Shown piece by piece: positions 25,162 to 61,032 of a DNA stretch of 64,000 nucleotides. A program made the translations under genes and the position numbers. Where the stretch lies: the IMG/VR virus record IMGVR_UViG_3300025581_000001, positions 1 to 64,000 of that record. One strand, given 5' to 3'. The notes beneath the pieces are model-generated. The model did no database searches. It had not been told where the DNA came from and worked only from the letters and a program-made list of their open reading frames with translations. The stretch comes from a virus. Every line of letters begins with the position of its first letter. Positions within the stretch are counted from its first letter, which is position 1.

Positions 25162-27852
25162 ATGCCGATAACTCTACTGCAGGGCCGGAAAGTTTATAAC
25201 CAGCCAGACACCGGCCTCGTCCGCGACCAACTGCAATGGCTGCAGGATACATTCAACAAGTATGGAGCCGCCTACTGGGTACGCTCCATGCTGTGGATTC
25301 TGAAGAAGAATCCTGAGCCTGATACTAAGCAATTCGTCCCATCAGCACAGTGGATGCGTCGCCTTGTTCCCTTCCGCTACAACCGCATCCAGCACGATCT
25401 AGAGCGCACTATGGGGAAGCGCAATATCTGCTGCAAGCCTCGGCAGGCCGGGTATTGCGTGGATGGCGACGTCGAGGTTGTGCTGCCTAATGGCCGCATT
25501 ATTAAGTACCGCAAGCTGACCAAGAGTAGTCATGTGCTCGACGAGTTTGGGAAGCCTATACCCATCAAGAATACTTACATCATCCCTGACTTCGCTCATG
25601 AATACAAAGGCGCAGCTACTACGGTGTTCAGCACTGCGCAGGCCAACGGCGTCACCGTGGCTCCTAATCATCCGTGGCTGACCCAGCGTGGTATGGTCGA
25701 GGCGCAACATCTGACTACCAGCGACTATCTGGCGCAGCCCATGTGCAAGCTGGAAGCCAGCACCATGCTGAAGCCTCGCGAGACTGGAGTGGTGGCTGGG
25801 CTGAAGTTCGGCGGAGTGAGTATCAAAGATTGCAGCATCACAGTGCGTAAGTCGTCGCCGGAGAAGCGCAGCTACGTCGAGGTGCACACCTTGCCACGAG
25901 TGCGAGCGGTGCTGCATGGGCAGCCGCTGCAAGGAAGCGCAATGATCAAGTGGGTCAAGACCGCATTGGGCGAGAAGCGCATGACTGACGCGGTGTTTAA
26001 GTATGGTCGTGAGTTTCTAGTCGGATTGCTTGAAGGCTGGTTGGTGGGGCGTGGGCATTGGCTGCGGCGGTCGATTACAGTAACGACATCGCGGGTGGTG
26101 GAGATGAACCTTATCCGGCAGGTATGCTTGGCGCTGGGTGTTGGCCTGCCCTACTTAGACGGTGAGACCCTGCGATTCCAAGGTGACTGCTACGACCGGC
26201 TGCATGACCTGCTGTACGGTGGCAAGCGACTGGACGACGGTAAGCGGCGCGATCAGTATGTTGATGGGGATTACACTTATGTTCGGGTACGCAAGACAGC
26301 CAAGACGAAGTGTGCTGAGTTTTTCGACATCGAGGTAGACAGCGACTCCCACTTGTACTGGCTGCCCATCGGCCTGACCCACAACACTACATTCTTTATC
26401 AACCGTCGCCTGTTCCTGCCCGCTATCCTGGAGCCGGGCTCTGGCGGTTTGCTCATCTCGCAGACCCACGGCTATGCGGCGCAGCACTTTCGCATCCTGC
26501 AGCGCGCCTACCGTTATGTCGGGGTGGTTGACCCTATCGACTATGAGAAGAATCTGCTGAGCCGCCAGCTTAAAGAAAACCTGTTGCATCTGCGGTACTC
26601 GAACCGCAAGGAACTGATCTTCGATCAGATTGATTCGTCGATTCTGGTGGAATCGGCGGAGGTGGAGGAAGCCGGTCAGGGCATTACCCTGTCGCATCTT
26701 CACGGTACCGAGGTCAGCCGCTGGCCGGGCAACCCCGAGGAGACGCTGGCTAACCTGAAGGAGGCGGTATCGGCTGGCGGAACTGTTGACCTTGAGGCGA
26801 CCCCGAACGGGCAAGGCGGATACTTCTTCGAGGAGTATAACCGGGCCAAGCGCGGCGGCAAGGATGTGGAGTTTGTCGCCCACTTCCATGAGTGGTTCTG
26901 GCACGATGAGTACCGGCTGGAACCTGCTATGGAAGAAGGCGAGTTGGATGAGGAAGAGCGGCGCAAGAAGATGCTCTTCGACTTGGACATGGAGCAGATG
27001 ACGTGGCGGCGCAAGAAGATCGTGCAGCTGCGGCACAACTTCAAGGAGAAGTACCCAGAGAACGATGTCGATTGTTTCTTGAGCAACTCTCGCATGTTCT
27101 TCGACTCGGAGATTGCGTCTGCCCGCACCGACGAGCTATCGGTGTACAAGCCACTCAGTGTGGAGCGCAACGGTGAGGTCGTCTTCTTCCAGAAGCCGAT
27201 TCGGGGGAGGAAGTACGTGCTGGGTGGTGACCCGGCTGAGGGCAAGCAGATCAACAATGAGGAGTCGGACTGGAGCGCGGCCAAGGTTATCGACGAGGAG
27301 ACCGGCGAGGACTGCTGCGCGTTGCGGGTCAAGGAGCCGCCGGAGGACTTCGGTGCAGACTGTGTGGAGCTGGGTGAGTACTACAACAATGCAATGGCGG
27401 TGATCGAGAGGAACAACCACGGCGGCACCGTCATCCTGGCGATGCGCGAGCTCGGTTATGGAAATATCTATAAGCACCGCGAATGGACGAAGCGCGACCG
27501 CAGGCGCATGGGCAAGAACCAGAACCAGGGCGATGCCAAGCAGTGGCAGGAGTTCGAGGGCTGGCCGGAGAACGTTAAGACCCGTAAGCTGCTGCTGAAC
27601 AAGGCAGCGGAGTTCATGCGGCATTATCCTGAGTACGTGTGGGACTACGACATGATGTCGGAGATCAAGACCTTCATCTACGACGAGAAGGGCGTGCCCA
27701 AGGCGATGGAGAACTACCACGATGATCGAGTGTTCGCTTGGGCGCTGGCGCACATCGGTCGGCTGGTGAACTTAGGTTATATAGACCCTCTGACTTGGAA
27801 AACACGCCGTTACGGGGAGACAGAAGATGAGACGGAATCAGAGGCTGCTTGA
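25162..27852 (+). CDS. terL: Terminase large subunit with an intein in the Walker A motif
   Basis: KPRQAGY|TT Walker A, LHGTEV Walker B, EATPNG, YVLGGDPAEG, IERNNHG, HDDRVFAWALA. Confidence 0.92.
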   Translation: MPITLLQGRKVYNQPDTGLVRDQLQWLQDTFNKYGAAYWVRSMLWILKKNPEPDTKQFVPSAQWMRRLVPFRYNRIQHDLERTMGKRNICCKPRQAGYCVDGDVEVVLPNGRIIKYRKLTKSSHVLDEFGKPIPIKNTYIIPDFAHEYKGAATTVFSTAQANGVTVAPNHPWLTQRGMVEAQHLTTSDYLAQPMCKLEASTMLKPRETGVVAGLKFGGVSIKDCSITVRKSSPEKRSYVEVHTLPRVRAVLHGQPLQGSAMIKWVKTALGEKRMTDAVFKYGREFLVGLLEGWLVGRGHWLRRSITVTTSRVVEMNLIRQVCLALGVGLPYLDGETLRFQGDCYDRLHDLLYGGKRLDDGKRRDQYVDGDYTYVRVRKTAKTKCAEFFDIEVDSDSHLYWLPIGLTHNTTFFINRRLFLPAILEPGSGGLLISQTHGYAAQHFRILQRAYRYVGVVDPIDYEKNLLSRQLKENLLHLRYSNRKELIFDQIDSSILVESAEVEEAGQGITLSHLHGTEVSRWPGNPEETLANLKEAVSAGGTVDLEATPNGQGGYFFEEYNRAKRGGKDVEFVAHFHEWFWHDEYRLEPAMEEGELDEEERRKKMLFDLDMEQMTWRRKKIVQLRHNFKEKYPENDVDCFLSNSRMFFDSEIASARTDELSVYKPLSVERNGEVVFFQKPIRGRKYVLGGDPAEGKQINNEESDWSAAKVIDEETGEDCCALRVKEPPEDFGADCVELGEYYNNAMAVIERNNHGGTVILAMRELGYGNIYKHREWTKRDRRRMGKNQNQGDAKQWQEFEGWPENVKTRKLLLNKAAEFMRHYPEYVWDYDMMSEIKTFIYDEKGVPKAMENYHDDRVFAWALAHIGRLVNLGYIDPLTWKTRRYGETEDETESEAA
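25456..26385 (+). mobile_element. Intein (310 aa) with a degenerate LAGLIDADG-like middle region
   Basis: Starts CVDGD, block B VAPNHPWLT, ends FFDIEV...LTHN followed by Thr. Confidence 0.9.
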
Positions 27853-28999: not shown

Positions 29000-29251
29000 A
29001 TGAAGAACGACGACAAGCCCGGATTCCAACGGGCGCAGCGGTTCGTGAAGCGCGACGCGCACCAGTTCAACGCGCAGCGCGAGCACCAGAAGCGGCTGAA
29101 GGCGAAGCGGCTGGATAATGCGCTTTTGGTTATCAGCAGATTTTTGCTGGCTGCTGACTGTGATATTTCCATAACTAACAAAACGTTTGCTGCTGTAGAG
29201 TATGCACGCAGTTTTGGATTCAACATATTGAAGGAGAAAGACAATGGCTAA
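29000..29251 (+). CDS. Hypothetical protein
   Basis: GAAGGAG SD. Confidence 0.5.
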   Translation: MKNDDKPGFQRAQRFVKRDAHQFNAQREHQKRLKAKRLDNALLVISRFLLAADCDISITNKTFAAVEYARSFGFNILKEKDNG

Positions 29252-30800
29252 GACAAAGATGCTGGAGCAGTTCGAAGCGGCGCGCTACGCGTCGACCCCT
29301 CTCATCGCTGTGCTCAGCGCCGACCCGCAGGCCACCATCGACTCGATTTGCGGGCTGCCCAAGCTCGAAGTCGATGAGCTGAAGAACCTCAGTGAGACCC
29401 CCATTGTGCAGTGGGACAGGATGCGTGGCGTCAGCGCATTGACCACCGAGGGCAGCAGGGGAATTGCGGCTGCTGGAATCAAGCCCAACGATGCCAAGCA
29501 GATCGTGAACCCTGCCGATGCCCTGATATTGGCAGCGCAGATGCCAGCCGGTACCATCTTCTTCATGCACGCCATGCACCTGTTCATCAAGGAGCCGGAC
29601 GTGCAGCAGGGTTTGTGGAATCTGCGTGACCAGTGCAAGGGAGACTTTCGCTCTATCGTGTCGCTGGCCCCCTCGCTCGACCTGCCCGAATTGCTGCGTT
29701 CGGATATGACCGTGTTCAACGAGCCGCTGCCGACCAGCGACGACCTGCGCACTCTGGTGAATGGCATCTCCCACGCCGCCCACGACCGTGACAAGTCGAT
29801 CAAGCTGCCGACGCCGCAGGAGATGGAGCGTGCGCTGGAGGCGCTGTGCGGACTGGCCGCGTTTCCCGCCGAGCAGGTCACCACCATGTGCATGACCGAC
29901 AAAGGGCTCGACTTCGAGATGATGTGGGAGCGCAAGCGGCAGGCTATCAACGCGACCCACGGCCTGAGCGTGTGGAAGGGCGACAAGGTCAATATCGGTG
30001 GGCTGGTGAACTCGCGGTCGTTTCTGTCGTCTATCATTGGTAACTTCTCCTGCATTGTGCTGCTCGACGAGTTGGAGAAGCTGACCGCAGGCGCGGGCAC
30101 CGACACCAGTGGCAGCACCACCAAGCAGGTTGGCTCGTTCCTGACCTGGTCGTCCGACCGCAAGATGAGCGGAGTGATGGCGATGGGCGTGCGCGGCGCT
30201 GGCAAGACCATCCTCGCCAAGTGGCTGGCCTCGCAGACCGGCAAGATGCTCATCGTCATGAATATCGCGGCGATGGAGGGCTCGCTGGTCGGTGAGTCGG
30301 TTGCCAATCTGGAGGCGTCGTTCAAGGTTATCGACGCGGTGGCAATGGTGAAGCCTCCGCTGTTCATCGGCACCACCAACAACGTGGAGGCGCTGTCGCC
30401 GGAGCTGCGCCGCCGCTTCAACCTGTGTACCTTCTTCTTCGACCTGCCGGATGGCGATGAGCGCAAGGAAATCTGGCCCATCCACCTGAAGGCTTATGAT
30501 GTGGCTGACCGGGCGCTGCCGGAAGACCACGGTTGGACGGGTGCGGAGATCGAGTCCTGCTGCCAGCTGGCGAAGCTGACTGGCAAGCCGCTGAAGCACG
30601 CGGCGCAGTTCATCGTGCCGGTGCTGCGCAGCTCGCCGGAGAGCGTGGACTACATGCGTTCGATGGCGCATCAGCGCTATGTGTCGGCGTCGCACGAGGG
30701 GCTGTACGAGTACAGCAGGATGAAGGAAGAGGAGACCCAGATAGCCAAGAAGCTGGTGCGTGCGATTGCTACCATGCCCAGCAAGCCAGCGGAGGCATGA
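29244..30800 (+). CDS. Ycf46-like AAA+ ATPase with permuted Walker B / Walker A order
   Basis: IVLLDELEK precedes GVRGAGKT; SLVGES, GTTNN, LSPELRRRF, FFFDLP..ER.EIW.IHL, WTGAEIE. Confidence 0.85.
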   Translation: MAKTKMLEQFEAARYASTPLIAVLSADPQATIDSICGLPKLEVDELKNLSETPIVQWDRMRGVSALTTEGSRGIAAAGIKPNDAKQIVNPADALILAAQMPAGTIFFMHAMHLFIKEPDVQQGLWNLRDQCKGDFRSIVSLAPSLDLPELLRSDMTVFNEPLPTSDDLRTLVNGISHAAHDRDKSIKLPTPQEMERALEALCGLAAFPAEQVTTMCMTDKGLDFEMMWERKRQAINATHGLSVWKGDKVNIGGLVNSRSFLSSIIGNFSCIVLLDELEKLTAGAGTDTSGSTTKQVGSFLTWSSDRKMSGVMAMGVRGAGKTILAKWLASQTGKMLIVMNIAAMEGSLVGESVANLEASFKVIDAVAMVKPPLFIGTTNNVEALSPELRRRFNLCTFFFDLPDGDERKEIWPIHLKAYDVADRALPEDHGWTGAEIESCCQLAKLTGKPLKHAAQFIVPVLRSSPESVDYMRSMAHQRYVSASHEGLYEYSRMKEEETQIAKKLVRAIATMPSKPAEA

Positions 30801-30801
30801 G

Positions 30802-31386
30802 ATGGCAACCTATAAGTACTGGTCGAGAGACTGGACTGATGATGAGGATGATGGCCCTGATTCTGATAACGACGCCGAGTGGACGGTGTGCGTCAGAGAT
30901 GACCTCAGGAGTGAACGGTATACAGTCGCAATCAATGAGTGGGATGACGACCTGCGTGGTCCCGGTTGGGGTTGGACGTGCTCCTGTCCCGCTTGGCGTC
31001 GAGCGAATCGCTTGGTGCGAAGCAAGATTGTAGATTGTAAACACATCCGCATGATAAAGCGGACTGAAGATGAGGTGCACGTTAACGCTATGCTGGCACA
31101 TACCGAGTCTCTGGCCGAGGGTGCTGCAATTGCTATGGAAAATGCTGGATTCTTCGTATGCGATGACTGCACTACGATACTGACACGAATGGGTGCGGCA
31201 CATCCCTGCATGAATTTCTCAGGTGATTCTGTGAATATTCCAGCACAGAGCATCAAGTTCCGGTTGGTTTCACGCAAGAAGAAAGGAGAAGTGAAAGCGG
31301 TGCCGGTAGTCGAGCATGTGCTGCTGGTGCAGCCGGTCAAGCGGGTGTTTGCTCTCCGGCCCAGAAGCGGGGTGCCACATGGCTGA
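30802..31386 (+). CDS. SWIM zinc-finger protein
   Basis: WTCSCPAW...DCKHI. Confidence 0.75.
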   Translation: MATYKYWSRDWTDDEDDGPDSDNDAEWTVCVRDDLRSERYTVAINEWDDDLRGPGWGWTCSCPAWRRANRLVRSKIVDCKHIRMIKRTEDEVHVNAMLAHTESLAEGAAIAMENAGFFVCDDCTTILTRMGAAHPCMNFSGDSVNIPAQSIKFRLVSRKKKGEVKAVPVVEHVLLVQPVKRVFALRPRSGVPHG

Positions 31387-32293
31387 CCGAGTGTTTGCTG
31401 ACATTCAGCCTGATAGCTGGTGCAGACAATCGCATCCCGAGAAGCAACCGGACGAGGAGTGGGAGAGCAACACAATTCTTCCATCGAATTACTCAGAACC
31501 AAAGTACCGGATAGGAGTACAAGCCTACGATATCGCAGGTAGACCATGTTCTGGCGTACCAGTGTTCCGAAAGAAGGTAGAGATGGCTACTAAGAACAAC
31601 GAGTACAGCTACGTGCGCTTGAGCGGCCAGAAGGAGTGGGTGTTGCGCTGGCAGGTGACCAAGTTGGTCACTGACAAGCTGAGGCGGTACGTGGTAGCGA
31701 TGAAGGCGGACGGGACATGGGGCTGTGCCTGCCCAGCGTGGACGATGGCCAGCAAGCAGTTCAAGTTCGCGACTAACGGAGTGCGTCCCGATTGCAAGCA
31801 CATTAAGATGATTCAAGGGTCGGAGTCACAGTCGTACATCAACGACAGGATAACAGCAGTGTGGAAGCTGAAGGGTCAGATGTTCGGCAGTTCGAGTTCA
31901 ATTGCCAGTCGGTGGGCAGCCGACCCGAACGAAATGAAGGCGGAACTGAATCAGGCTATCGGCAAGGGCTTTTCACCAGGGAGTAAGACGATTCATAATT
32001 CATTTTTCAATCAAGAAAAACTGCAAAGGGCGCAGCAAGAGGTGAAAGCGGAGCAGCAGCGAGAGTACGGAACCTGCCCCGATTGCGGTAAGCGATTTCC
32101 GAAGCATTTACTGCTGGAAACATTGAGTGCTGGGCGTTGCTTCTCCTGCTATGACATGGAGATGCGGCGCATCAACGAAATGAATGCTCTGGCCGATAAG
32201 GTGAAGGCGCAGCAGCGGACGGAGCAGGCCGAACTCGACTCGATGATCGTGCAGACGAAGAAGCGGGTCGTTCACATACGAAAGAGAGGGTAA
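31379..32293 (+). CDS. SWIM zinc-finger protein with a second zinc ribbon
   Basis: WGCACPAW...DCKHI; CPDCG...CFSC. Confidence 0.7.
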   Translation: MADRVFADIQPDSWCRQSHPEKQPDEEWESNTILPSNYSEPKYRIGVQAYDIAGRPCSGVPVFRKKVEMATKNNEYSYVRLSGQKEWVLRWQVTKLVTDKLRRYVVAMKADGTWGCACPAWTMASKQFKFATNGVRPDCKHIKMIQGSESQSYINDRITAVWKLKGQMFGSSSSIASRWAADPNEMKAELNQAIGKGFSPGSKTIHNSFFNQEKLQRAQQEVKAEQQREYGTCPDCGKRFPKHLLLETLSAGRCFSCYDMEMRRINEMNALADKVKAQQRTEQAELDSMIVQTKKRVVHIRKRG

Positions 32294-32297
32294 CTAT

Positions 32298-32738
32298 ACG
32301 TCACATGTAGCCAGTATCGAATTGGAGATCAAGGACTTGGACGCGCTGGAGGAAGCCTGCGAGACGCTGGGCTTGCAGTTGGTGCGCGGCCAGAAGACGT
32401 ACAAATGGTGGGGCCACAGCGTTGGCGACTACCCTTTACCACATGGCTTCAAAGCCAGCGACTTGGGCAATAGTGAGCATGCCATCCGCATACCCGGCGA
32501 CAAGAACGCCTACGAGATTGGCGTGGTGCCTCGGCGCGACGGCAAGCCGGGCTATACCCTACTGTGGGACTTCTACGCCGGGGGCTACGGCATGGAAGCG
32601 AAGGTCGGCAAGGACGCGTGCAAGCTGAAGCAGGCGTACAGCGCAGCCGTTGCCACCCGCCACTACCGCAAGCTGGGCTACCGCGTTAGCGTCGAGAAGA
32701 AGGAAGGAGAAAGGCTGGTGGTCAAATGCCGCAAGTAA
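32298..32738 (+). CDS. DUF1257/Ycf35-like protein (apparent ACG start)
   Basis: (M)SHVASIELEIKDLDALEEACETLG...YEIG...Y.L.WD...LKQAY. Confidence 0.75.
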   Translation, partial: TSHVASIELEIKDLDALEEACETLGLQLVRGQKTYKWWGHSVGDYPLPHGFKASDLGNSEHAIRIPGDKNAYEIGVVPRRDGKPGYTLLWDFYAGGYGMEAKVGKDACKLKQAYSAAVATRHYRKLGYRVSVEKKEGERLVVKCRK

Positions 32739-32908
32739 ATCAAATCACAACGACGGAATTGTGGAAGCGTCAGTTGTTATGTATTGCTGATGACCATCGC
32801 AAGAAGTGCGACGGGGCAACCTGCAATATTATGCTGTCGACGCTGTTGTTTGTGGGTCTGGCTGCTGGTTTGCAGTTTACCGATGAAGAAAGATTGAGGT
32901 TTTCGTAA
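32726..32908 (+). CDS. Small hypothetical protein
   Basis: 60-aa ORF filling the gap between neighbours. Confidence 0.4.
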   Translation: MPQVNQITTTELWKRQLLCIADDHRKKCDGATCNIMLSTLLFVGLAAGLQFTDEERLRFS

Positions 32909-33099
32909 TGGCACAAGAAATCACCATCGACATTCCATTGCACGGCGAGATCAGCGTGAGCGTCGCCGGAGTCAAGGGCAAATCTTGCAAGGACGTTACC
33001 AAGGCGCTGGAAGCTGCGCTGGGCACCACAACCAAGGACGAATTGACGAGGGAGGCATATGAACAGCCCGAGCGAGTTCTCAATAGCAATCGACGTTGA
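32908..33099 (+). CDS. DUF2997-like small protein
   Basis: ITIDI..HGEISVSV.GVKGKSC...T..LE.ALG...T.E.Y. Confidence 0.8.
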   Translation: MAQEITIDIPLHGEISVSVAGVKGKSCKDVTKALEAALGTTTKDELTREAYEQPERVLNSNRR

Positions 33100-33313
33100 T
33101 GGTGTTGCGTCGATGATCTACTCGGATGAGCACGCTGAGTTCCTGCGCACGGGTACGACGACCGTGCGCCGCGCTTCTCACGTTGAGCCTGCGCCGCAGG
33201 GTGGCTGGACGGCGGATATGTCGCCAGTCGGAGGTCCACTACTTGGGCCGTTCGATTTGCGGCAGCAAGCGCTCGACGCCGAAGTCGAGTACCTCAAACA
33301 ACTGTTGTTCTAA
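33059..33313 (+). CDS. Conserved hypothetical protein of AAA/DUF1257/DUF2997 clusters
   Basis: RRASHVEP...WTADMSPVGGPLLGPF..R..AL.AEV.YL motif (recalled, not searched). Confidence 0.65.
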   Translation: MNSPSEFSIAIDVDGVASMIYSDEHAEFLRTGTTTVRRASHVEPAPQGGWTADMSPVGGPLLGPFDLRQQALDAEVEYLKQLLF

Positions 33314-33331
33314 CCGATGAAGGAGAGCAAG

Positions 33332-33658
33332 ATGGCGAAAAAGAAAAGCAGGCTAATCTCCAAGGTGACAGGCGAGGAGATATCAGTCAAATCGGTAACC
33401 GCAAATCTCGCTTCCAGTGGTTTGTTCGATAAGCGAGTGATGAATGCACAGATTGCAAACAACAAGCATCTTCGCAGTATCGTTCCTACGGCGACGATGC
33501 TGAATGTGGATACAGAGGAGCAAAGCTTTTTGCTTAAATGCGAGCTTGGTTCCTACATTATTGAACTCATCAGCCAGTATCACGAAAAGGCGAAGATGAC
33601 CGGCCCAGCAGTAGCGAAATGCTTGTTGGATTGCATTATCACCGTGTTGGAGAAGTAA
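33332..33658 (+). CDS. Hypothetical protein
   Basis: GAAGGAG SD. Confidence 0.5.
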   Translation: MAKKKSRLISKVTGEEISVKSVTANLASSGLFDKRVMNAQIANNKHLRSIVPTATMLNVDTEEQSFLLKCELGSYIIELISQYHEKAKMTGPAVAKCLLDCIITVLEK

Positions 33659-33680
33659 TCACGCATTGAAGGAGATCAAG

Positions 33681-34619
33681 ATGGCAAGCGCAAAAGAAAA
33701 CGTGGTAACCATGCCGACCAAGGCCAGCAACATCTTCGAGGAAGCGGTCGCGATGGTTGTTGACCTGGGCAAGCTGGGCCGCACCCGCAAGCTGAAGGGC
33801 GGGGCCTACGAGGTCGAGGGCACCGACAAGGAGCGCACCCAGGCCAGCAAGAAGCTGCTGCAGTGCGACGAGTTCGAGGACATCGTGCGCTTCGACAACC
33901 GCACCCGCTTCAAGATGGCAACCTTGAGCGTCAGCGCCAGCGAGTTCCGCGAGGGCGTATGGATGGTCAAGCTGTGCAATTACAACAAGGTCGTTAAGAT
34001 GCTCAAGGAGCGCCGCGCCGAGCGGTTGGAGCTGGTGGACGCACTGATGAAGAAGTACAAGCAGGCGCAGCAGGACGACGCGGAAGCGCTGGGGCCGAAC
34101 TTCAATCCCGCCGACTACCCGTCGGAGGACGAGGCCCGTGCCCGCTTCCGCATGGACTGGTACAGCATCCAGTTTTCGACGCCCAGTTCGGTGAAGAGCA
34201 TCTCGCGGCAGGCGTGGGAGGAGGAGAGCAACAGCATGAAGGAGATGGTGCGCGACATGACCACCGACTTCCAGAAGACGCTGTGCGTCGAGATGCAGGC
34301 GGTGGTTGACCACATGCTGGAGTGCGTGCAGGGCAACCTGAACGGCAAGAAGCGGAAGTTCAACTCCGACTTGGTGGACAAGGCGGTCGAGTTCTTCGAC
34401 AACCTGCCTGGCCGGAACATCACCAACGTCGCCGAGCTGGATAAGCTGGCCAAGCAAGCCGCGAGCATCCTGGTGGGCGTGGAGTCGCAGGACATCCGTG
34501 ACCGCAGTGCGGTGCGCAAGGAAGTGGCGGCGGGCTTTACCGAGATCAAGGCGACGCTGGAGACGCTGGTGGTCGACAAGCCGAGGCGGGCCGTGGCCAT
34601 CAGGAAGAAGGAGGCATGA
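33681..34619 (+). CDS. DUF3150-like helical protein
   Basis: ASKKLL, LGPNFNPADYPS..E.RARF; context of the AAA module. Confidence 0.55.
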   Translation: MASAKENVVTMPTKASNIFEEAVAMVVDLGKLGRTRKLKGGAYEVEGTDKERTQASKKLLQCDEFEDIVRFDNRTRFKMATLSVSASEFREGVWMVKLCNYNKVVKMLKERRAERLELVDALMKKYKQAQQDDAEALGPNFNPADYPSEDEARARFRMDWYSIQFSTPSSVKSISRQAWEEESNSMKEMVRDMTTDFQKTLCVEMQAVVDHMLECVQGNLNGKKRKFNSDLVDKAVEFFDNLPGRNITNVAELDKLAKQAASILVGVESQDIRDRSAVRKEVAAGFTEIKATLETLVVDKPRRAVAIRKKEA

Positions 34620-54633: not shown

Positions 54634-54989
54634 CTGGAGCGGGTAGCTGGATGCAGGAGTTCAAGATGTCGTGGGACGAGATACAGCGCAAGTTCACGTT
54701 GTCGGAGATGGCGATGATGAACTTCTCCTCCCGCGAGTCAGTGGCTGGTCTTGGAAAAGACAAAACGCGGGCACTGCCCGAGCCGAGCATGGAGCAGTTC
54801 CTTGACGATGAGGTGGGCAACCCAGAAGCGATGCAACCCAGTGACTTCTCGGTGAAGCGTGGGCCAGTTGAGACCTCGCCAGATGAGATGACTGACATGC
54901 GGCAATATACTGGCAAGCAGCTGTGGAAGTACTTCCAGAGTCAAGGATTGATATTTCCTATGATTGAGCGCAAGAAGAAGAGGGACTAA
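54564..54989 (+). CDS. Tail assembly chaperone -1 frameshift extension (GT)
   Basis: T TTT TTC slippery heptamer at 54564-54570; -1 frame open through to ORF 54651..54989. Confidence 0.7.
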   Translation, partial: FFLTSFPRIPDDHEREPSRCPAVAGAGSWMQEFKMSWDEIQRKFTLSEMAMMNFSSRESVAGLGKDKTRALPEPSMEQFLDDEVGNPEAMQPSDFSVKRGPVETSPDEMTDMRQYTGKQLWKYFQSQGLIFPMIERKKKRD

Positions 54990-54990
54990 G

Positions 54991-57900
54991 ATGGCCGACA
55001 ACCCCGGACGTCTACTGCTGGTAAAAGCCAAGGTCGACCTGACTGCTTTCAAGGACAGCTTGAAGCAGATGCAGAATATGGTGAAGTCGGTCAACTTGGC
55101 GCTGGCTCCCAAGGCCGCTGCGACCGTCAGCACTGGCCTGAAGGAGACGCTGGACGCCGAGCGGCAGAAGCAGACTGCCAAGCAAGCCACCCTAAAGGTC
55201 GGTGACTCCAGCGTCGTGCAGGAGAAGTCGCTGCGTGCTGAACTGATGCGCACGATGGAGCTGCGGCGACAGGAGACGGTCGAGCTGCAGAAGCAGGTCA
55301 CTGCCCTGCGTGAGAAGGTAGCTGCCGAGAATGCTTTGCTACATGTCCAGCACGAGGGCGTCCGCCAGCAGACGCAGCGCACCATCCAGCAAGAACGGGC
55401 GCTACGGCAGCCCACGTCGTACCAAGGCGTCATACCTACGGTGGTGCGCTCTGCGCCCGCCGTAGCGCAAACCGTGGCCAGCGCTGGCGCTTCTACGGGG
55501 CAATCGGTGGAGACAGCGGCCTACCAAGCCAGTCTTATGCGCCAAATGCGGCTGGCGTCGGTGGGCAAGGCTCCGGGCGGGATGCCACCAGCCAGCGGGC
55601 TTACAGCTTCGCTTACCGGTGGTTTGATGGGAGGCTTGGGCGCTGGTATGCCTGCCTCCGAAGCGGCTCGACTGCAGGATCAGCGGGCACGTGATTTGCG
55701 CTTGCAGCAGACAGTGCAACGTGCTATTGCAGTACAGATTCCAACAGCAGTAACAAAGCCTAGTGAAGTTCGTACTCCGTCGCGGGTAATTACTCCGGTT
55801 GCAATCAAGCAGCCGATTGAGACCAAGCAGTCTGTCGAAGTGTTGCCTCGCTTGTCGATGGTAGAGACTGCGAATCTTGCCCGAGCGCAAGCAGCTAAAG
55901 ACAAAGCACTCCGTGAACTTCGTGAACGGACTGCTGCAGCTCATGTAGTAATACCTCCTCCCCCTCCAGCGTCGCTGGTTGAAAAAGATACGCTGACTGG
56001 ACGGTTCCGGGCTAAGTCACATCCTACTGAAGTGGTTGTTCCTCCAACTCCGATAGTTCCGATTAGGCAGCCGATTGTGGTACCTCCTCTTCCAGTAGCA
56101 GCAGCAAAGCCAAGTGAAGTTTTGATACCTCCGCCTGCGAGATTGGTTGAGAAAGACCCGCTGACTGGACGGTTTCGCGCTAAGGCTCCAGAAGTTATTG
56201 TTCCGCCACCCCCACCGGTGATTCCACCGGTTGTGTTCAGACAGCCAGTTAAGCCAGAGGTTGCCCCTGTCACGGTCAAGCAACCAACGGAAGTCCTACC
56301 GCAAATAACTACTGCACAGATTATGGCGCAGCAGCGTGCCCGCGAATTGCGGATGCAGACTGCGCCTATCTTGCAGGCTCCGATACCGCAAGGTGGCTGG
56401 GTCGAGAAAGACCCGGCGACCGGGCACTTCCGTGCCAAGCAGCAAACTCCAGTGGCACATCCTCCGTCGTCTCCTGAACAAGTTCGGGCGCAGCGGGCGC
56501 AAGAGTCTGCATTCACTCGCATGACGGTGCAAGACGCCGCCGCGCAGGTTAGGCTTACCCAAGTCACCGAGGGCCAGAAGAAAGCGTTGGTACTCGGCTC
56601 CTTAGATGTGCAGCGTGATGCGTTGCGTGCCCAGCTGCGGTCGCAGCAGATCAGCTTCGTCCAGTACATATCGCAAATGAAAGTCTTGGTGGCACAGGAG
56701 AAGGCTACCAAGCTTGCCGCTATCGCCGCCGAGGAGAAGGCGCTGCTGGCTCTGTTGCAGACTAAACTTAAGGTCAATGCTATCACTCCGCAGGCGTTTC
56801 AGACTCAGAGTTCAATTCTCAATGCGCAGATGGGGATGCAGCGCACGGCAGTAGAGAATGCCAGCAGCCGCCAGCTGCTCATGTTCAACAGGCAGCAGCC
56901 TCAACTACGTGGAGGAAAAGGAGAAGAGGGCAGCTTGCTGCGCGGTATGGGCATGGGCATTACCCGCAGCTTGGGTGGTGGACTTGTCGGCTCGATAGCG
57001 ACCGGTCTGATGTTTGGTGGTGGTACCTTGATGGTGTTCGATCAAGCAGCTCGCGGCATCGAGCACATGATGCACTCGATGAAGGAGTTCATCCTGGCGT
57101 CCGGCCCCATGCAGCAGGTGAATGCGCAGTTCCAGACGCTGGCCAAGGGAGCGGGCATTGATGCTCCAGCATTCATGGATAAGCTGCGCGCATCGACCCA
57201 CGGGCTTGTCGACCACATGGATTTGATGCGGGTCGCTACCGGAGCACTGCGCAGCAATCTGAAGCTTTCCGATACAGATATTCTGCGGCTGGTCAAGGAC
57301 ACGACTGAGTTGGCCCGCGTGCAGGGCAAGTCAGTGCCACAGGCCATGCATATGCTTGACACCGCTTTGCAGACTGGGCAGATGCGTGGCGTTGCAAGGT
57401 TTCTTGGTCTCAATCAGCGCGAGTTGATGATGAATGTTGCTCCACGTGGCGCAACGATACAGCAGCGTGAACAGCTGCAGATGACACAGGTGCGAGGAGC
57501 GATGGAGTCACGGCTGGCCAAGACTGGTATCGCACCTGAGACCATGACCGAGAGCTTCCAGAAGTTGAAGCAGGCACAATCTGAATTTTGGGAGGACTTC
57601 GGGCAAGGGATGGCGACGTCTACCGGAGCAAGGGCATTCATAGCGTCACTCAGCAAGATGGCTGACGGTATCGGTGGCCTGAGTGGTATGGCGAAGAAGT
57701 TGGGGGAAACGCTGGGAGAAGCGTTCGCATTTGTAGGACGCGTACTACTCAGTGTTATAGAGGACTTCGGAAGTCTTGCAAAAATCATAGGTTTAGTGGT
57801 TAGTCAGGGAGTTGCCGGAATCACATCTCTTGGCGGAGCAGTTGGAGGATTGCAGGGGCAACTGACTGGCATGAAGTCTGTGTTCAGCTTCATGTTCGAA

Positions 57901-60900
57901 GTTTTTAACCAGATGGAGCTGGGGGCGAAGAAGTTGGGCTCTGTGTTCGTACTGCTTGCCGAAGTACGTAACCCTTGGATTAAATTTGGGGATGCGGTCG
58001 ACCACTACAACGCGTCGGTCGGCAAAGCCGATGAGCACGCGACCAGTCAGACGTTTGAGATGAACAAGGCGTTGGTCGGGCCTCCGACTATTCCACTAGA
58101 GAAAGCAAAAGCTGACCTTACAGCTTATCGGAAATTGCTGGAGACTGCTAATAAGGAAATTGCTGCTACAGGAGGTGTACCGAAGACAGGCCCCATCTCT
58201 ACTGAGATGGCATCGCGGATTCAGAAGCGTGATGAGTATCAGAGGGGCATTACAACCATTCTCTTATCACGTCCAGAATTAACCTCTGCAGACACAAGTG
58301 GAGTGACAACTGGTGGAATTGACCCCGCTACTCGCGCGCAGAATATGCGCGATGCGCAAGCTGCGCTGAAGATTACCGAGCTGGTCGAGGACGAGAAGCT
58401 GAGTGTCGTCAAGCGGGGGCTCGAAGCGCAGCGCGACGCGCAGCAGCAGATGTTAAAGAGTGGTGAGACCGACCTCTTCAGCTACGTCCAGAAAATGAAG
58501 GGATACGTCGAGGCCGAGAAGAACGCGGAGCTTAGTCGTATCGATGCTGTAGAAAAAGCCAACAAAGAGATGCGGCAGGCTGAACTGGCTACGGGGGGTA
58601 TCACTCAGAAAGACTACTTGAATGCAACCGCTGTCGCTGCCAAGGAAGCGGCCAAGCAGAAGTCGGGGGTGGAAGAGGAAGCCGCCAAGAAGACGATGGC
58701 GCTTACTGACCAAGTCAACCAAGATAAGGTTGCTGCGGTAGCGGTTGCTGAGAATCGAGAAATTCAGATTCGCAAGGATGCTCTTGCTCTACAGCAGGAG
58801 ATGATAAAAGACGCCTACGACAAGCAACTGCTGAGTGTCAATACCTACCTTGCCAGTGAACGTGCTGCGATAGAGGAAACCTACAAGATCGAGGAAGATG
58901 CTGCTAGTGAAAAGTACTACCGTACCGAGCAAGGCCAGAAAGACTTGGAGCAGCTGGCTGCTGATTATACTGCTGCGCAGGCTAAGCGCGAGAAAAGTGT
59001 TACTACTCAAGCCAATAGCGAAGTACAGAAACGTGTTGCACGTGCTCAGCAAGACTATGAGACCGTAGCTGGTTTTCTCCAAGCACGTCAGCAGTTGCAG
59101 GTAGCGCAACGTGGTGGGCAGGAGCTGCCGGTAGCGCAGCAGCGCGATGACTTGGCTACGCAGATTGCGGCCCTCAGCAAGGCCATTGCTACTATGGCGG
59201 CTGACATTGCGACTGCTCCGGCGGGACAACGAATGCAGTTGGCTCCGCAGTTGATGGCGAAGCAGCAGGAGCTTATCCCGCTGCAGGTAAAGCAGGCGCA
59301 GCTGAATGAAGGGCCGATTCCTCTTTCCTCGGTGGGTGATTTGGCGTCCGCGCTTGGGCAACTTCCACAAGGCACGACTCGTGCTTTCAAGGGCGTGGGT
59401 GCGATACCGGAACTCATGCAGTGGATGACCAAACAGCAGCAGGCACAGAAGGAAGGTGCTGTGCCAGGGATTATTTCTGGGCCAATGCAGAATCTTGGAC
59501 TGCTGTTCCACGACTTGTTTACCAATGCTCATGGCCTGCCTGACGCCTTCAGGAACCTAGAGCAGTCATTGCTCCCTGCTATTCAGGCCATTGCCAGCTT
59601 TGCTTCTGCCGTACAGCAAGGGCCAGTGGCGGGGGCCATCGCGGGTGCGGGCATGGGCAAGATGCTGTTCAGCGGTGGAGGAATGTTCAGTGGGATTGGT
59701 TCTTTATTGAGTGGGTTGCATGGTAAAAAACAGAGTGATGGGTCTGTACCTGGCCCAGGACAACCTGTTGAGTTTGTAGATAAAGGCGCTCCAACTGGAA
59801 CTTCTGGAGTAGAAGGAGTGCCACCGGGAATGGGTTCTTCTGGGGTTACTTCCGAAGCGACTTCGGGTGCCTCCAGCGCTGTAGGTGGTGCTGTTAGTAG
59901 TATGGTTACAAAATTGGCCAGTAGCGTAGGTAGTTCGTTGCAAGGTCTCGGCGCGATGGCTGGGCCTATTGGTGCGGTTGCCGGTGCCGCTTTTGGTGCC
60001 ATCCTTTCCAGCATTGTTGAGAAGAAGCAGCGGGCAACAGAGAAGTACCTGCTGCAGATGCAGCTGGATTTCCAACGGATAACCTTGTCGCTGCAGACCG
60101 GCCAGATAGGCATGAACGAGGCTATCACCGAGGCCATTGCGCTGCGCAACGACGTGCAGGCGCAGATGAACAACTCCAGCAAGAAGAAGCGCAGCGCCTA
60201 CATGCAGGAGTTGCAGGGGTTCAACCAACAAATCCAGCAGCTGCAGGCACAGCAGGTGCAGCAGGTGCAGCAGATGTACGAGCAGGTGAATACCGTTGGG
60301 GCATCGCCGCTGAACGCATTCACTCAGCAGCTGCAGCAGATCATCCAGCAGTATGCGCAGTTCGCCGGGGCGGCGCGGAACACGCAGGACTTGGCATCAG
60401 CGACCGAGTGGCTGACCAAGTCATTGCAAGGCTATGCGCAGACTCAGTTGACCGCAATGAACCAGGCTGAGACCGGAGCCATTCAAGATGCTATCCAGCT
60501 GAATGACTTGTACACCCAGCGCAACCAGCTGCTGCAGCAGGAAGCCAACACTGAGTACAACATCATGACTCAAGGCATCCTGACCCGGCAGCAGACCACG
60601 GCGCAGAGCAAGATGGAGCAGATTGCCCTGATGAAGCAGCAGGACGCTATCCAGCTGCAGAACCTGAACGAGCAGATCGGTGCCGCGCAATTCCGGGTGG
60701 ATGCAGAGAAGAAAATTTTCAATCTAGCGACCACGCGAGTTGGACTGGAGATGCAGCTGTTGGCCATGCAGAATCAGTCGACCACCTTGCAGATGGCACA
60801 GGTTGCCGCTCTGCAGCAGGTGGTGATGGCGATGCAGAGTGGGAACTTCCAGAACATCCTGACCGGCGGACTGAACGTTAATCAGAACGCTCCGGGATAC

Positions 60901-61032
60901 CAGGCTTTCTGGAACCTGCTCAAGGCGCTAGGCATGCAGCCTTCCGACTTGATGAACCAGTTCCTCAAGCAGTTCAACGACATGAGTGGTTATGGCTTTG
61001 GTGGATTCTCTATCGTATCAGGTGGCGGATAA
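54991..61032 (+). CDS. Tape measure protein (about 2010 aa)
   Basis: Length, Ala/Gln-rich helical composition, Gly-rich hydrophobic segments, synteny. Confidence 0.9.
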   Translation: MADNPGRLLLVKAKVDLTAFKDSLKQMQNMVKSVNLALAPKAAATVSTGLKETLDAERQKQTAKQATLKVGDSSVVQEKSLRAELMRTMELRRQETVELQKQVTALREKVAAENALLHVQHEGVRQQTQRTIQQERALRQPTSYQGVIPTVVRSAPAVAQTVASAGASTGQSVETAAYQASLMRQMRLASVGKAPGGMPPASGLTASLTGGLMGGLGAGMPASEAARLQDQRARDLRLQQTVQRAIAVQIPTAVTKPSEVRTPSRVITPVAIKQPIETKQSVEVLPRLSMVETANLARAQAAKDKALRELRERTAAAHVVIPPPPPASLVEKDTLTGRFRAKSHPTEVVVPPTPIVPIRQPIVVPPLPVAAAKPSEVLIPPPARLVEKDPLTGRFRAKAPEVIVPPPPPVIPPVVFRQPVKPEVAPVTVKQPTEVLPQITTAQIMAQQRARELRMQTAPILQAPIPQGGWVEKDPATGHFRAKQQTPVAHPPSSPEQVRAQRAQESAFTRMTVQDAAAQVRLTQVTEGQKKALVLGSLDVQRDALRAQLRSQQISFVQYISQMKVLVAQEKATKLAAIAAEEKALLALLQTKLKVNAITPQAFQTQSSILNAQMGMQRTAVENASSRQLLMFNRQQPQLRGGKGEEGSLLRGMGMGITRSLGGGLVGSIATGLMFGGGTLMVFDQAARGIEHMMHSMKEFILASGPMQQVNAQFQTLAKGAGIDAPAFMDKLRASTHGLVDHMDLMRVATGALRSNLKLSDTDILRLVKDTTELARVQGKSVPQAMHMLDTALQTGQMRGVARFLGLNQRELMMNVAPRGATIQQREQLQMTQVRGAMESRLAKTGIAPETMTESFQKLKQAQSEFWEDFGQGMATSTGARAFIASLSKMADGIGGLSGMAKKLGETLGEAFAFVGRVLLSVIEDFGSLAKIIGLVVSQGVAGITSLGGAVGGLQGQLTGMKSVFSFMFEVFNQMELGAKKLGSVFVLLAEVRNPWIKFGDAVDHYNASVGKADEHATSQTFEMNKALVGPPTIPLEKAKADLTAYRKLLETANKEIAATGGVPKTGPISTEMASRIQKRDEYQRGITTILLSRPELTSADTSGVTTGGIDPATRAQNMRDAQAALKITELVEDEKLSVVKRGLEAQRDAQQQMLKSGETDLFSYVQKMKGYVEAEKNAELSRIDAVEKANKEMRQAELATGGITQKDYLNATAVAAKEAAKQKSGVEEEAAKKTMALTDQVNQDKVAAVAVAENREIQIRKDALALQQEMIKDAYDKQLLSVNTYLASERAAIEETYKIEEDAASEKYYRTEQGQKDLEQLAADYTAAQAKREKSVTTQANSEVQKRVARAQQDYETVAGFLQARQQLQVAQRGGQELPVAQQRDDLATQIAALSKAIATMAADIATAPAGQRMQLAPQLMAKQQELIPLQVKQAQLNEGPIPLSSVGDLASALGQLPQGTTRAFKGVGAIPELMQWMTKQQQAQKEGAVPGIISGPMQNLGLLFHDLFTNAHGLPDAFRNLEQSLLPAIQAIASFASAVQQGPVAGAIAGAGMGKMLFSGGGMFSGIGSLLSGLHGKKQSDGSVPGPGQPVEFVDKGAPTGTSGVEGVPPGMGSSGVTSEATSGASSAVGGAVSSMVTKLASSVGSSLQGLGAMAGPIGAVAGAAFGAILSSIVEKKQRATEKYLLQMQLDFQRITLSLQTGQIGMNEAITEAIALRNDVQAQMNNSSKKKRSAYMQELQGFNQQIQQLQAQQVQQVQQMYEQVNTVGASPLNAFTQQLQQIIQQYAQFAGAARNTQDLASATEWLTKSLQGYAQTQLTAMNQAETGAIQDAIQLNDLYTQRNQLLQQEANTEYNIMTQGILTRQQTTAQSKMEQIALMKQQDAIQLQNLNEQIGAAQFRVDAEKKIFNLATTRVGLEMQLLAMQNQSTTLQMAQVAALQQVVMAMQSGNFQNILTGGLNVNQNAPGYQAFWNLLKALGMQPSDLMNQFLKQFNDMSGYGFGGFSIVSGGG

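Follow-up and report, generated by a model that had tools for sequence, protein, structure and literature searches.

The core of AAA+ ATPases has, to our knowledge, always been described with one fixed chain order, in which the Walker B strand and helix alpha3 lie behind helix alpha2 in every other AAA+ protein. Whether this order can be rewired in nature is the question raised by a gene in the IMG/VR virus record IMGVR_UViG_3300025581_000001, of which positions 1 to 64,000 were analysed (64,000 nucleotides, referred to here as the window). With 120,726 bases and direct terminal repeats, the record represents a complete virus genome, in which the gene occurs once. An earlier note on this DNA had described an AAA+ ATPase with the Walker B segment placed in front of Walker A. 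According to the analysis presented here, the product is very probably a phage Ycf46-like AAA+ ring ATPase with an active module in which the beta3-alpha3 unit has been relocated, while the sheet and the active site are conserved.

Order of the catalytic motifs

The gene (29244..30800; all features of the gene are on the plus strand) encodes a two-domain Ycf46-like AAA ATPase of 518 amino acids (AA), designated P0001, whose second domain is permuted. The N-terminal domain (residues 1-235, 29244..29948) has an AAA-like alpha/beta fold with a helical lid and is devoid of a P-loop or DE pair. It is followed by an inter-domain linker and helix alpha0 (residues 236-268, 29949..30047), including an I-G-G-L motif at residues 251-254. 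The next segment is the transposed block (residues 269-308, 30048..30167), which is assigned to the canonical beta3-alpha3 segment by block profile matches and co-variation. It consists of a strand at residues 270-274 leading into the Walker B pair D275/E276, a pore-loop-2-like loop rich in G, D, S and G at residues 280-293, and a helix at residues 291-305. Residue 270 begins at base 30051, and the Walker B-like strand terminates in D275-E276.

Only behind this block does the Walker A block appear (residues 309-370, 30168..30353), comprising strand beta1, the P-loop (G315-T322, 30186..30209), alpha1, beta2, pore loop 1 (L348-V349-G350, 30285..30293) and alpha2. The P-loop has the Walker A form GxxGxGK[ST], with G315, G318 and K321 followed by T/S322. 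Strand beta4, helix alpha4 and strand beta5 (30354..30452, delimited by the predicted secondary structure) carry the sensor-1 residue N379 (30378..30380) and the arginines R389-R390-R391 of alpha4 (30408..30416). The protein ends with a helical lid and a C-terminal tail (residues 404-518, 30453..30797), in which a weak match to Pfam AAA_lid_3 was found at residues 429-445. The chain order in the active domain is beta3-alpha3-beta1-alpha1-beta2-alpha2-beta4. The usual place of Walker B has no acidic pair, as just about six residues (367-372) separate the helix at 351-366 from the strand at 373-378.

Standard profile and sequence searches reflect this arrangement. The Pfam AAA profile PF00004 scored 45.4 bits against a cut-off of 21.2 and covered residues 313-364 only, corresponding to profile positions 3-54 of 131. 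In the phmmer alignment to p97, residues 309-366 were paired with chain positions 40-97 and residues 371-446 with positions 141-222, so that Walker A, pore loop 1, sensor 1 and the arginines all lined up, while the Walker B/alpha3 segment of p97 (about 43 residues) was skipped. Three aligners independently show the displacement of Walker B. This confirms the order given in the earlier note, namely I-G-G-L, DE block, Walker A, pore loop, sensor 1 and arginines at the same positions within the 518-AA open reading frame (ORF), together with its statement that an acidic Walker B is missing from the normal position.

Relatives with the normal block order

Relatives with the normal block order were found in the phage loci L167, L168 and L170, in the sediment contig L165, in a plastid-type Ycf46-like ORF on contig L166, and in the Streptococcus satellite phage Javan368, whose protein (QBX09687.1) is a member of phrog_8638. 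One relative of the Javan368 type was named 'SpoVK/Ycf46/Vps4 family AAA+-type ATPase' by JGI. The ORF on L166 encodes 497 AA on a low-GC contig, and its label as a plastid-type Ycf46 is derived from its sequence and its neighbours and is not a database name; the genes beside it resemble what we take to be plastid genes. The scans of IMG/VR yielded no further normal-order phage relatives beyond L167, L168 and L170, of the 595 pattern matches in the metagenome scan, 4 were confirmed, and a search with the Javan368 protein returned close relatives only (82-99 % identical).

The homology of the moved block was assessed with a profile built from residues 266-308 and with 2000 shuffled decoys as a control. 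In the normal-order proteins, this profile matched right behind the Walker A block, at residues 297-337 of the L165 protein (E 4.6e-13), 331-368 of the Javan368 protein (5.7e-13) and 331-367 of P0358 (7.8e-14). The Ycf46-type ORF on L166 likewise has the block after Walker A (residues 320-357, E 4.6e-7), as the earlier note had supposed for Ycf46-like proteins. Since the E-values of these matches range from 4.6e-7 to 7.8e-14 and the best decoy reached 0.31, the swap is far beyond what is expected by chance. The profiles of the N-domain, the Walker A block and the C-part also fell at their expected places in the normal-order relatives. The N-domain profile matched the N-termini of the proteins from L165 (6.9e-24), L166 (4.7e-16) and Javan368 (3.1e-9), and for L166 the Walker A block (4.4e-16) and the C-part (1.3e-12) were recovered as well.

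Pairwise comparisons gave the same picture. BLASTP alignments to the proteins of L167 (E 1e-28) and Javan368 (E 3e-19) contained two reciprocal gaps of about 40 residues, and the second Javan368 segment paired residues 270-305 of the query with residues 331-371. The phrog_8638 profile aligned end to end with the Javan368 protein (residues 9-502 to profile positions 23-539 of 568, E 1.3e-105), whereas P0001 was matched in three stretches that are not colinear (E 2.5e-26). At the level of the sequence, the order A-B-C of the nearest kin has become B-A-C, with the N-domain still first, the C-part still last and two internal blocks exchanged.

Distribution of the permuted form

A word-indexed search identified 1859 relatives among 8000 scored candidates. 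An exhaustive HMMER search against 1.84 billion representatives, taken from a library of clusters at 50 % identity, returned 5200 matches at E<=1e-3, of which 2351 reached E<=1e-10 and 983 reached E<=1e-30. Among the best 150 of these 5200, and leaving the query aside, identities were 35-45 % and almost all alignments were a single stretch of near full length. The few rows with two stretches include three long proteins that were later found to bear inteins.

From 269 fetched proteins, 265 homologs shorter than 600 AA were aligned with MAFFT, and the four intein-bearing ones were excluded. All 265 proteins are in the permuted order, and E276, K321, G350 and N379 are each present in every one of them. 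D275 is an aspartate in 259 and a glutamate in the remaining 6, R391 is kept in 264 and R390 in 241, and G253 of the I-G-G-L motif is a glycine in 261. An initial census with regular expressions was too strict, leaving 99 of the 269 proteins unclassified next to 170 permuted and 0 normal ones, and was superseded by the alignment count and a profile census of loci. For the latter, the ORFs of 166 loci, drawn from IMG/VR, GTDB genomes and metagenomes, were searched with four segment profiles (N-domain, block B, block A and C-part). The order N-blockB-blockA-C was found in 162 of them, and three loci (L165, L166 and L081) have the normal order. As exceptions, the gene in L088 is split by an intein, and the gene in L164 is a fragment. 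The interpretation of the earlier note as an internal permutation that keeps all catalytic elements is supported by these counts: the block order is swapped relative to Ycf46-like homologs, the catalytic residues are kept across the 265 homologs, and homologs with the same order, which the note had suggested to look for, are the rule.

The permuted form is not restricted to uncultivated viruses. It occurs in the cultured Tunturiibacter phage Tunturi_3, a circular record, whose gp103 is 37 % identical and colinear over residues 5-488, and in the complete chromosome of Nitrospira moscoviensis (L159). In species-representative genomes, 174 places with the permuted form were confirmed, mostly in metagenome-assembled genomes of Acidobacteriota, Nitrospirales and Armatimonadota. 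In IMG/VR, at least 361 permuted loci compare with 3 normal-order phage loci, a ratio that is rough because the search patterns differed.

Inteins with homing-endonuclease domains interrupt the homologs P0111, P0133, P0161 and P0265 at three sites inside the catalytic motifs. Two different sites are within the P-loop (P0133 and P0265), and one is located immediately ahead of the residue that precedes the sensor-1 Asn (P0111 and P0161). The gene of locus L088 is also split in this way. Inteins tend to occupy functionally essential sites.

Predicted structural consequences of the exchange

The AlphaFold2 model, based on a 119-sequence alignment, has a mean predicted local distance difference test score (pLDDT) of 92.4 and a predicted template modelling score of 0.85. 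The active domain contains exactly five strands (270-274, 309-315, 335-339, 373-378 and 395-399), with the DE pair at the C-terminal end of the first one, and pLDDT values of 92-97 were obtained over residues 261-280 and 291-310. The N-domain (1-235) has its own five strands, helices and lid in this model, and the family consensus shows neither a P-loop nor a DE pair over this range. The region is a degenerate D1-like AAA domain common to Ycf46-like proteins. The whole model (residues 1-494) could be superimposed on D1 and D2 of p97 (7lmz_C, residues 207-769) with a Z-score of 17.7 and a root-mean-square deviation (rmsd) of 4.8 over 399 residues, and the C-domain (242-488) on D2 alone with a Z-score of 14.7 and an rmsd of 3.0 over 196 residues. 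As Foldseek and VIA-align report the first and last aligned residues only, these superpositions are silent on the position of the moved block.

Information on this position was obtained from mean-field direct coupling analysis (DCA) of 417 sequences (effective number of sequences, Meff, 274; 22,155 ranked pairs), and a run with 265 sequences gave the same picture. The moved strand is coupled to beta4 in parallel register with an offset of 102 (V272-F374, rank 48; D275-T377, rank 51), and L277 of the moved segment to G376 of the sensor-1 strand at rank 11. The start of the moved strand is linked to the end of alpha2 (C270-A367, rank 2; 269-368, rank 22). The moved helix is linked to alpha2, pore loop 1 and alpha4 at ranks 5-8, 10 and 14, including the pairs V296-S385 (rank 5), T292-E345 (rank 6) and K294-V353 (rank 7), and L273-A325 has rank 12. 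Links between the moved strand and beta2 are weaker (ranks 133-164), and with beta1 there is no real link, the best rank being just 861. Within the core, beta1-beta5 and beta1-beta4 pairs were found at ranks 23 and 73, respectively.

In the AAA+ sheet with the order 5-1-4-3-2, strands 3, 4 and 1 are adjacent, and their N-terminal ends face away from the nucleotide. According to the comparison with the normal-order relatives and the predicted secondary structure, the three new junctions are located at the starts of strands beta3, beta1 and beta4. Because these are the starts of adjacent strands, each loop would have to shift by one or two strand positions only. Helix alpha0 now runs into the Walker B strand, with a Pro-rich stretch in most members that resembles the one before beta1 in normal-order relatives. 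Helix alpha3 is connected to beta1 via the conserved glycine G310 (G in 249 of the 265 homologs), and alpha2 joins the sensor-1 strand directly.

The model and the co-variation most likely fit an unchanged sheet with re-routed loops and the moved strand in its canonical slot. Of the 'rewired P-loop topology' proposed in the earlier note, the part concerning chain connectivity holds, while the three-dimensional sheet order is most likely unchanged. For a swapped segment with unchanged termini, 'rewired connectivity' most likely is the better description. An oligomer prediction with three copies of residues 236-518 and three ATP molecules, run without controls, scored 0.00 against a mark of 0.42 and speaks neither for nor against binding.

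Evolutionary origin

A tree was calculated from concatenated order-neutral segments of 59 sampled permuted and 8 normal-order rows and rooted on the Ycf46-type row. All permuted rows form one clade with a Shimodaira-Hasegawa-like approximate likelihood-ratio test (SH-aLRT) value of 100, and the normal-order group L165/L167/L168/L170 is their sister (SH-aLRT 86). The simplest reading of this tree is a single origin of the permuted form. Intermediates with two Walker B blocks were found neither among the 265 aligned proteins nor in the 166 loci. As a speculation, a duplication of the stretch from beta1 to alpha3 followed by two deletions would yield the observed order.

Weighing of alternative explanations

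An incorrect block order in this contig, caused by assembly or sequencing, was the most trivial explanation to be considered and had already been named in the earlier note. It has practically no probability left: the same order recurs in every one of the 265 aligned homologs and, across independent assemblies, in 162 of 166 loci, including the cultured Tunturi_3 phage and the complete Nitrospira moscoviensis chromosome, the reading frame is open, and the record is a virus genome with direct terminal repeats. The other objection raised in the note was that the DE block belongs to a degenerate first domain. In a wider form, the block would be a remnant of that domain or a separate element, and the second domain would have no Walker B. 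In favour of this, a degenerate AAA-like N-domain does exist, and the Pfam match covers residues 313-364 only. This explanation is nevertheless very improbable. The N-domain is complete with its own five strands and lid. The second domain begins with the I-G-G motif and alpha0, and the block comes only after these. In the normal-order relatives, the block profile matches the Walker B/alpha3 segment of the second domain. Co-variation links the block to beta4, alpha2 and pore loop 1 of this same domain, and D275/E276 are as strictly conserved as K321. Without the block, the second domain would be left with four strands.

A further possibility is that the block is homologous to beta3-alpha3 and docks elsewhere, for example as an edge strand, which would create a new sheet order and turn the protein into a pseudo-ATPase or an ATP-binding switch. 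The position of the strand was deduced from prediction and co-variation, the links between the moved strand and beta2 are weak, and one beta2-beta4 pair has rank 68, all of which would be compatible with such a change. On the other hand, the invariance of E276 (265/265) and D275 is hard to explain without catalysis, and the co-variation with beta4 is in parallel register (272-374 and 275-377), supported by the pair 277-376 at rank 11. The confident model in the regions 261-280 and 291-310, its superposition on p97 D2 with an rmsd of 3.0 over 196 residues, and the inteins in the P-loop and at sensor 1 of four homologs also argue against it. Altered docking is thus considered unlikely, although less so than the two preceding explanations.

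The preferred explanation remains a relocated beta3-alpha3 unit within a conserved sheet and active site. The exchange itself, its conservation throughout the family and the homology to normal-order relatives are established from sequences, and the unchanged three-dimensional arrangement is suggested by co-variation together with the secondary structure of the predicted model. The assignments of substrate, oligomeric state and ATPase activity are all inferred. According to this explanation, beta3 with the Walker B residues D275/E276, the pore-loop-2 region and alpha3 would have moved as one contiguous unit from a place between alpha2 and beta4 to its present place between alpha0 and beta1. The sheet order 5-1-4-3-2 and the active site could then remain as in any AAA+ protein, with three loops re-routed. 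ATP would most likely be bound and hydrolysed by a ring oligomer with the trans-acting arginines R390/R391 and a central L-V-G pore loop. A protein partner would probably be remodelled or threaded, jointly with the DUF1257-like, DUF2997-like and DUF3150-like products of neighbouring genes, and this partner might be one of these module products or a target in the host.

Several points weigh against this explanation or limit it. Pore loop 1 contains a Leu (L-V-G), and most classical AAA unfoldases have an aromatic residue there. R389 is variable, being R in 201, K in 34 and another residue in 30 of the 265 homologs. The DCA is noisy, as the pairs 339-375 (rank 68) and 373-394 (rank 77), which should not touch, rival some of the expected ones, and the alignments used for AlphaFold2 and DCA overlap, so the two are not fully independent. 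For strand 270-274, the slot between 373-378 and 335-339 is deduced from the predicted secondary structure and from co-variation, and so is how close D275/E276 come to the P-loop. The block order was inspected in the best 150 of the 5200 representative matches and the best 120 of the 1859 matches of the word-indexed search. The segment profiles used for the tree were derived from the permuted family, with just 8 normal-order rows and the root on one long branch. Finally, all members of the family are known here from sequence and prediction.

Neighbouring genes

The ATPase gene is located about 1.4 kb downstream of the large terminase gene (25162..27852, +). The terminase ORF encodes 896 AA, of which the terminase profile phrog_2 covers residues 466-871 only, and its N-terminal part of about 460 residues is unexplained except for a short 'head protein' match at residues 144-192.

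Downstream of the ATPase gene, four genes on the plus strand could be assigned to conserved clusters. A DUF1257-like (Ycf35-like) protein of 138 AA is encoded at 32322..32738 (+; cluster-3 profile, E 7e-64), and cluster 3 matched the Pfam-DUF1257-positive cluster 7 in hhalign with a probability of 97 % and an E-value of 9.5e-11. It is followed by a DUF2997-like protein of 63 AA (32908..33099, +; cluster-6 profile, E 2e-21), for which a cluster-6 member matches PF11211 at E 1e-15, and by a small conserved protein of 84 AA without a family assignment (33059..33313, +; cluster-2 profile, E 2e-31). The last one is a DUF3150-like helical protein of 317 AA (33666..34619, +; cluster-1 profile, E 4e-77). 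Its AlphaFold2 model has a pLDDT of 89.9, and the best BFVD match is a 'DUF3150 domain-containing protein' (E 1.3e-13, template modelling scores 0.74/0.80). For this protein, no PDB fold match was found at E<=0.001, and searches of Pfam, PHROGs and NCBIfam gave nothing. One paper ascribes DUF1257 to the product of ycf35, a plastid gene (PMC13060386), and another lists a cyanobacterial gene cluster DUF2997-ycf35(DUF1257)-fed7 (PMC4284462).

The occurrence of these genes was counted within the fetched flanks of 80 IMG/VR and 80 genome loci. The DUF3150-like gene was present in 76 and 70 of them, respectively, the DUF1257-like gene in 73 and 71, and the DUF2997-like gene in 44 and 63, while the gene of the cluster-2 small protein was found in 36 of the 80 IMG/VR loci. 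All neighbour matches in the IMG/VR and genome loci are on the strand of the ATPase gene. The DUF1257-like, DUF2997-like and DUF3150-like genes adjoin permuted and normal-order (L167, L168) ATPases alike. Since the same genes flank the normal-order ATPases of L167 and L168, the swap occurred inside a pre-existing gene module.

The same-strand module (32322..34619, +, in the window) was also seen at L167, L168, L082 and L159. At L159 (Nitrospira moscoviensis NSP M-1, 1451463-1462911), the permuted ATPase gene is found together with DUF1257-like and DUF3150-like genes; this locus is presumably a prophage and a possible second experimental system. In the Tunturi_3 phage, gp96 (L082:9693-10652), an 'HNH endonuclease' in GenBank, aligns along almost its entire length with the profile of the DUF3150-like cluster 1 (E 6.5e-94), and its present annotation may be wrong.

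Between the ATPase gene and the module, two ORFs (30802..31386 and 31316..32293, +) each contain a C-x-C ... C-x-H motif reminiscent of SWIM-type zinc fingers, with no match to the Pfam SWIM profile. The second of these ORFs groups with ORFs of 7 related loci, usually directly behind the ATPase gene. Two very long ORFs are located towards the end of the window, at 54964..61032 (+, 2022 AA) and at 61032..63998 (+, at least 989 AA), the latter running off the window end.

Relation to other AAA proteins

The features that define classical AAA proteins, namely Walker A, Walker B, the sensor-1 Asn and the arginines, are all present, but not in the canonical chain order. The closest counterparts are the normal-order phage and satellite Ycf46-like ATPases (L165, L167, L168, L170 and Javan368), which have the same two-domain architecture with all segments matched by the profiles. 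They differ from the permuted clade in that their own Walker B/alpha3 block lies behind alpha2 and not before beta1. Plastid and cyanobacterial Ycf46, represented by the ORF on L166, shares the N-domain, Walker A, Walker B and the C-part, whereas its block order is normal, its identity is about 25 %, and its setting is cellular or organellar instead of a phage module. The best structural matches were type II classical AAA proteins (p97/VCP, Cdc48, NVL/Rix7 and Drg1), which also have two stacked AAA-like domains. In contrast to these, the protein described here lacks nucleotide-binding motifs in its first domain, is permuted in the second and has no N-terminal substrate-adaptor domain; sequence identity to this group is 14-26 %.

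Membership in several named families was considered and rejected. The NCBIfam CDC48 model scored 33.7 bits against a cut-off of 802.65, the model of the anti-phage ATPase IteA (NF042959) 35 bits against 510, and a proteasomal ATPase was ruled out on its NCBIfam score. A circular permutation was also rejected, as the N-domain and the C-part remain first and last and only internal blocks are exchanged. Circularly permuted GTPases of the YlqF/YjeQ type have the motifs of P-loop NTPases in a non-standard chain order and keep their fold and activity. In these proteins, the termini have moved within a GTPase fold, whereas an internal segment swap within an AAA+ fold is found here.

Implications

The permuted family represents a conserved natural rewiring of the AAA+ core, and this rewiring appears to be unpublished. 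In the open-access papers and bioRxiv preprints searched, no description of a permuted AAA+ core or of a permuted ATPase family was found, and neither 'ATPase' nor 'AAA' occurs in the main text of the Tunturi virus paper (PMC11924767). A broader claim would be that the clade is the first described natural non-circular permutation of the AAA+ strand-helix core, that it arose once and spread in soil and freshwater phages and prophages, and that the rewiring may not be neutral. Taken as a whole, this claim is tentative and rather doubtful. If it were true, Walker B, pore loop 2 and alpha3 would be tethered to the inter-domain linker and alpha0 and not to alpha2 and pore loop 1, which could change the coupling of ATP hydrolysis to the pore loops and the N-domain. 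In that case, the rewiring might also account for the large excess of the permuted form over its normal-order sister group among the viral records.

The findings suggest that two internal segments of the AAA+ core can change places without the loss of any catalytic residue. Work on protein evolution and design thereby gains a naturally occurring example of loop rewiring in a motor ATPase. As the Pfam match extends over just 52 residues of the domain and does not include Walker B, automated annotation may label the permuted proteins as truncated or inactive. Matched pairs of permuted and normal-order ATPases from one gene module offer a route to asking whether connectivity affects mechanochemical coupling. 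The module of AAA, DUF1257-, DUF2997- and DUF3150-like genes ties three families without an assigned function, one of which is Ycf35, to an ATPase, and its presence in a cultured phage-host pair, Tunturi_3 on Tunturiibacter, opens it to study there.

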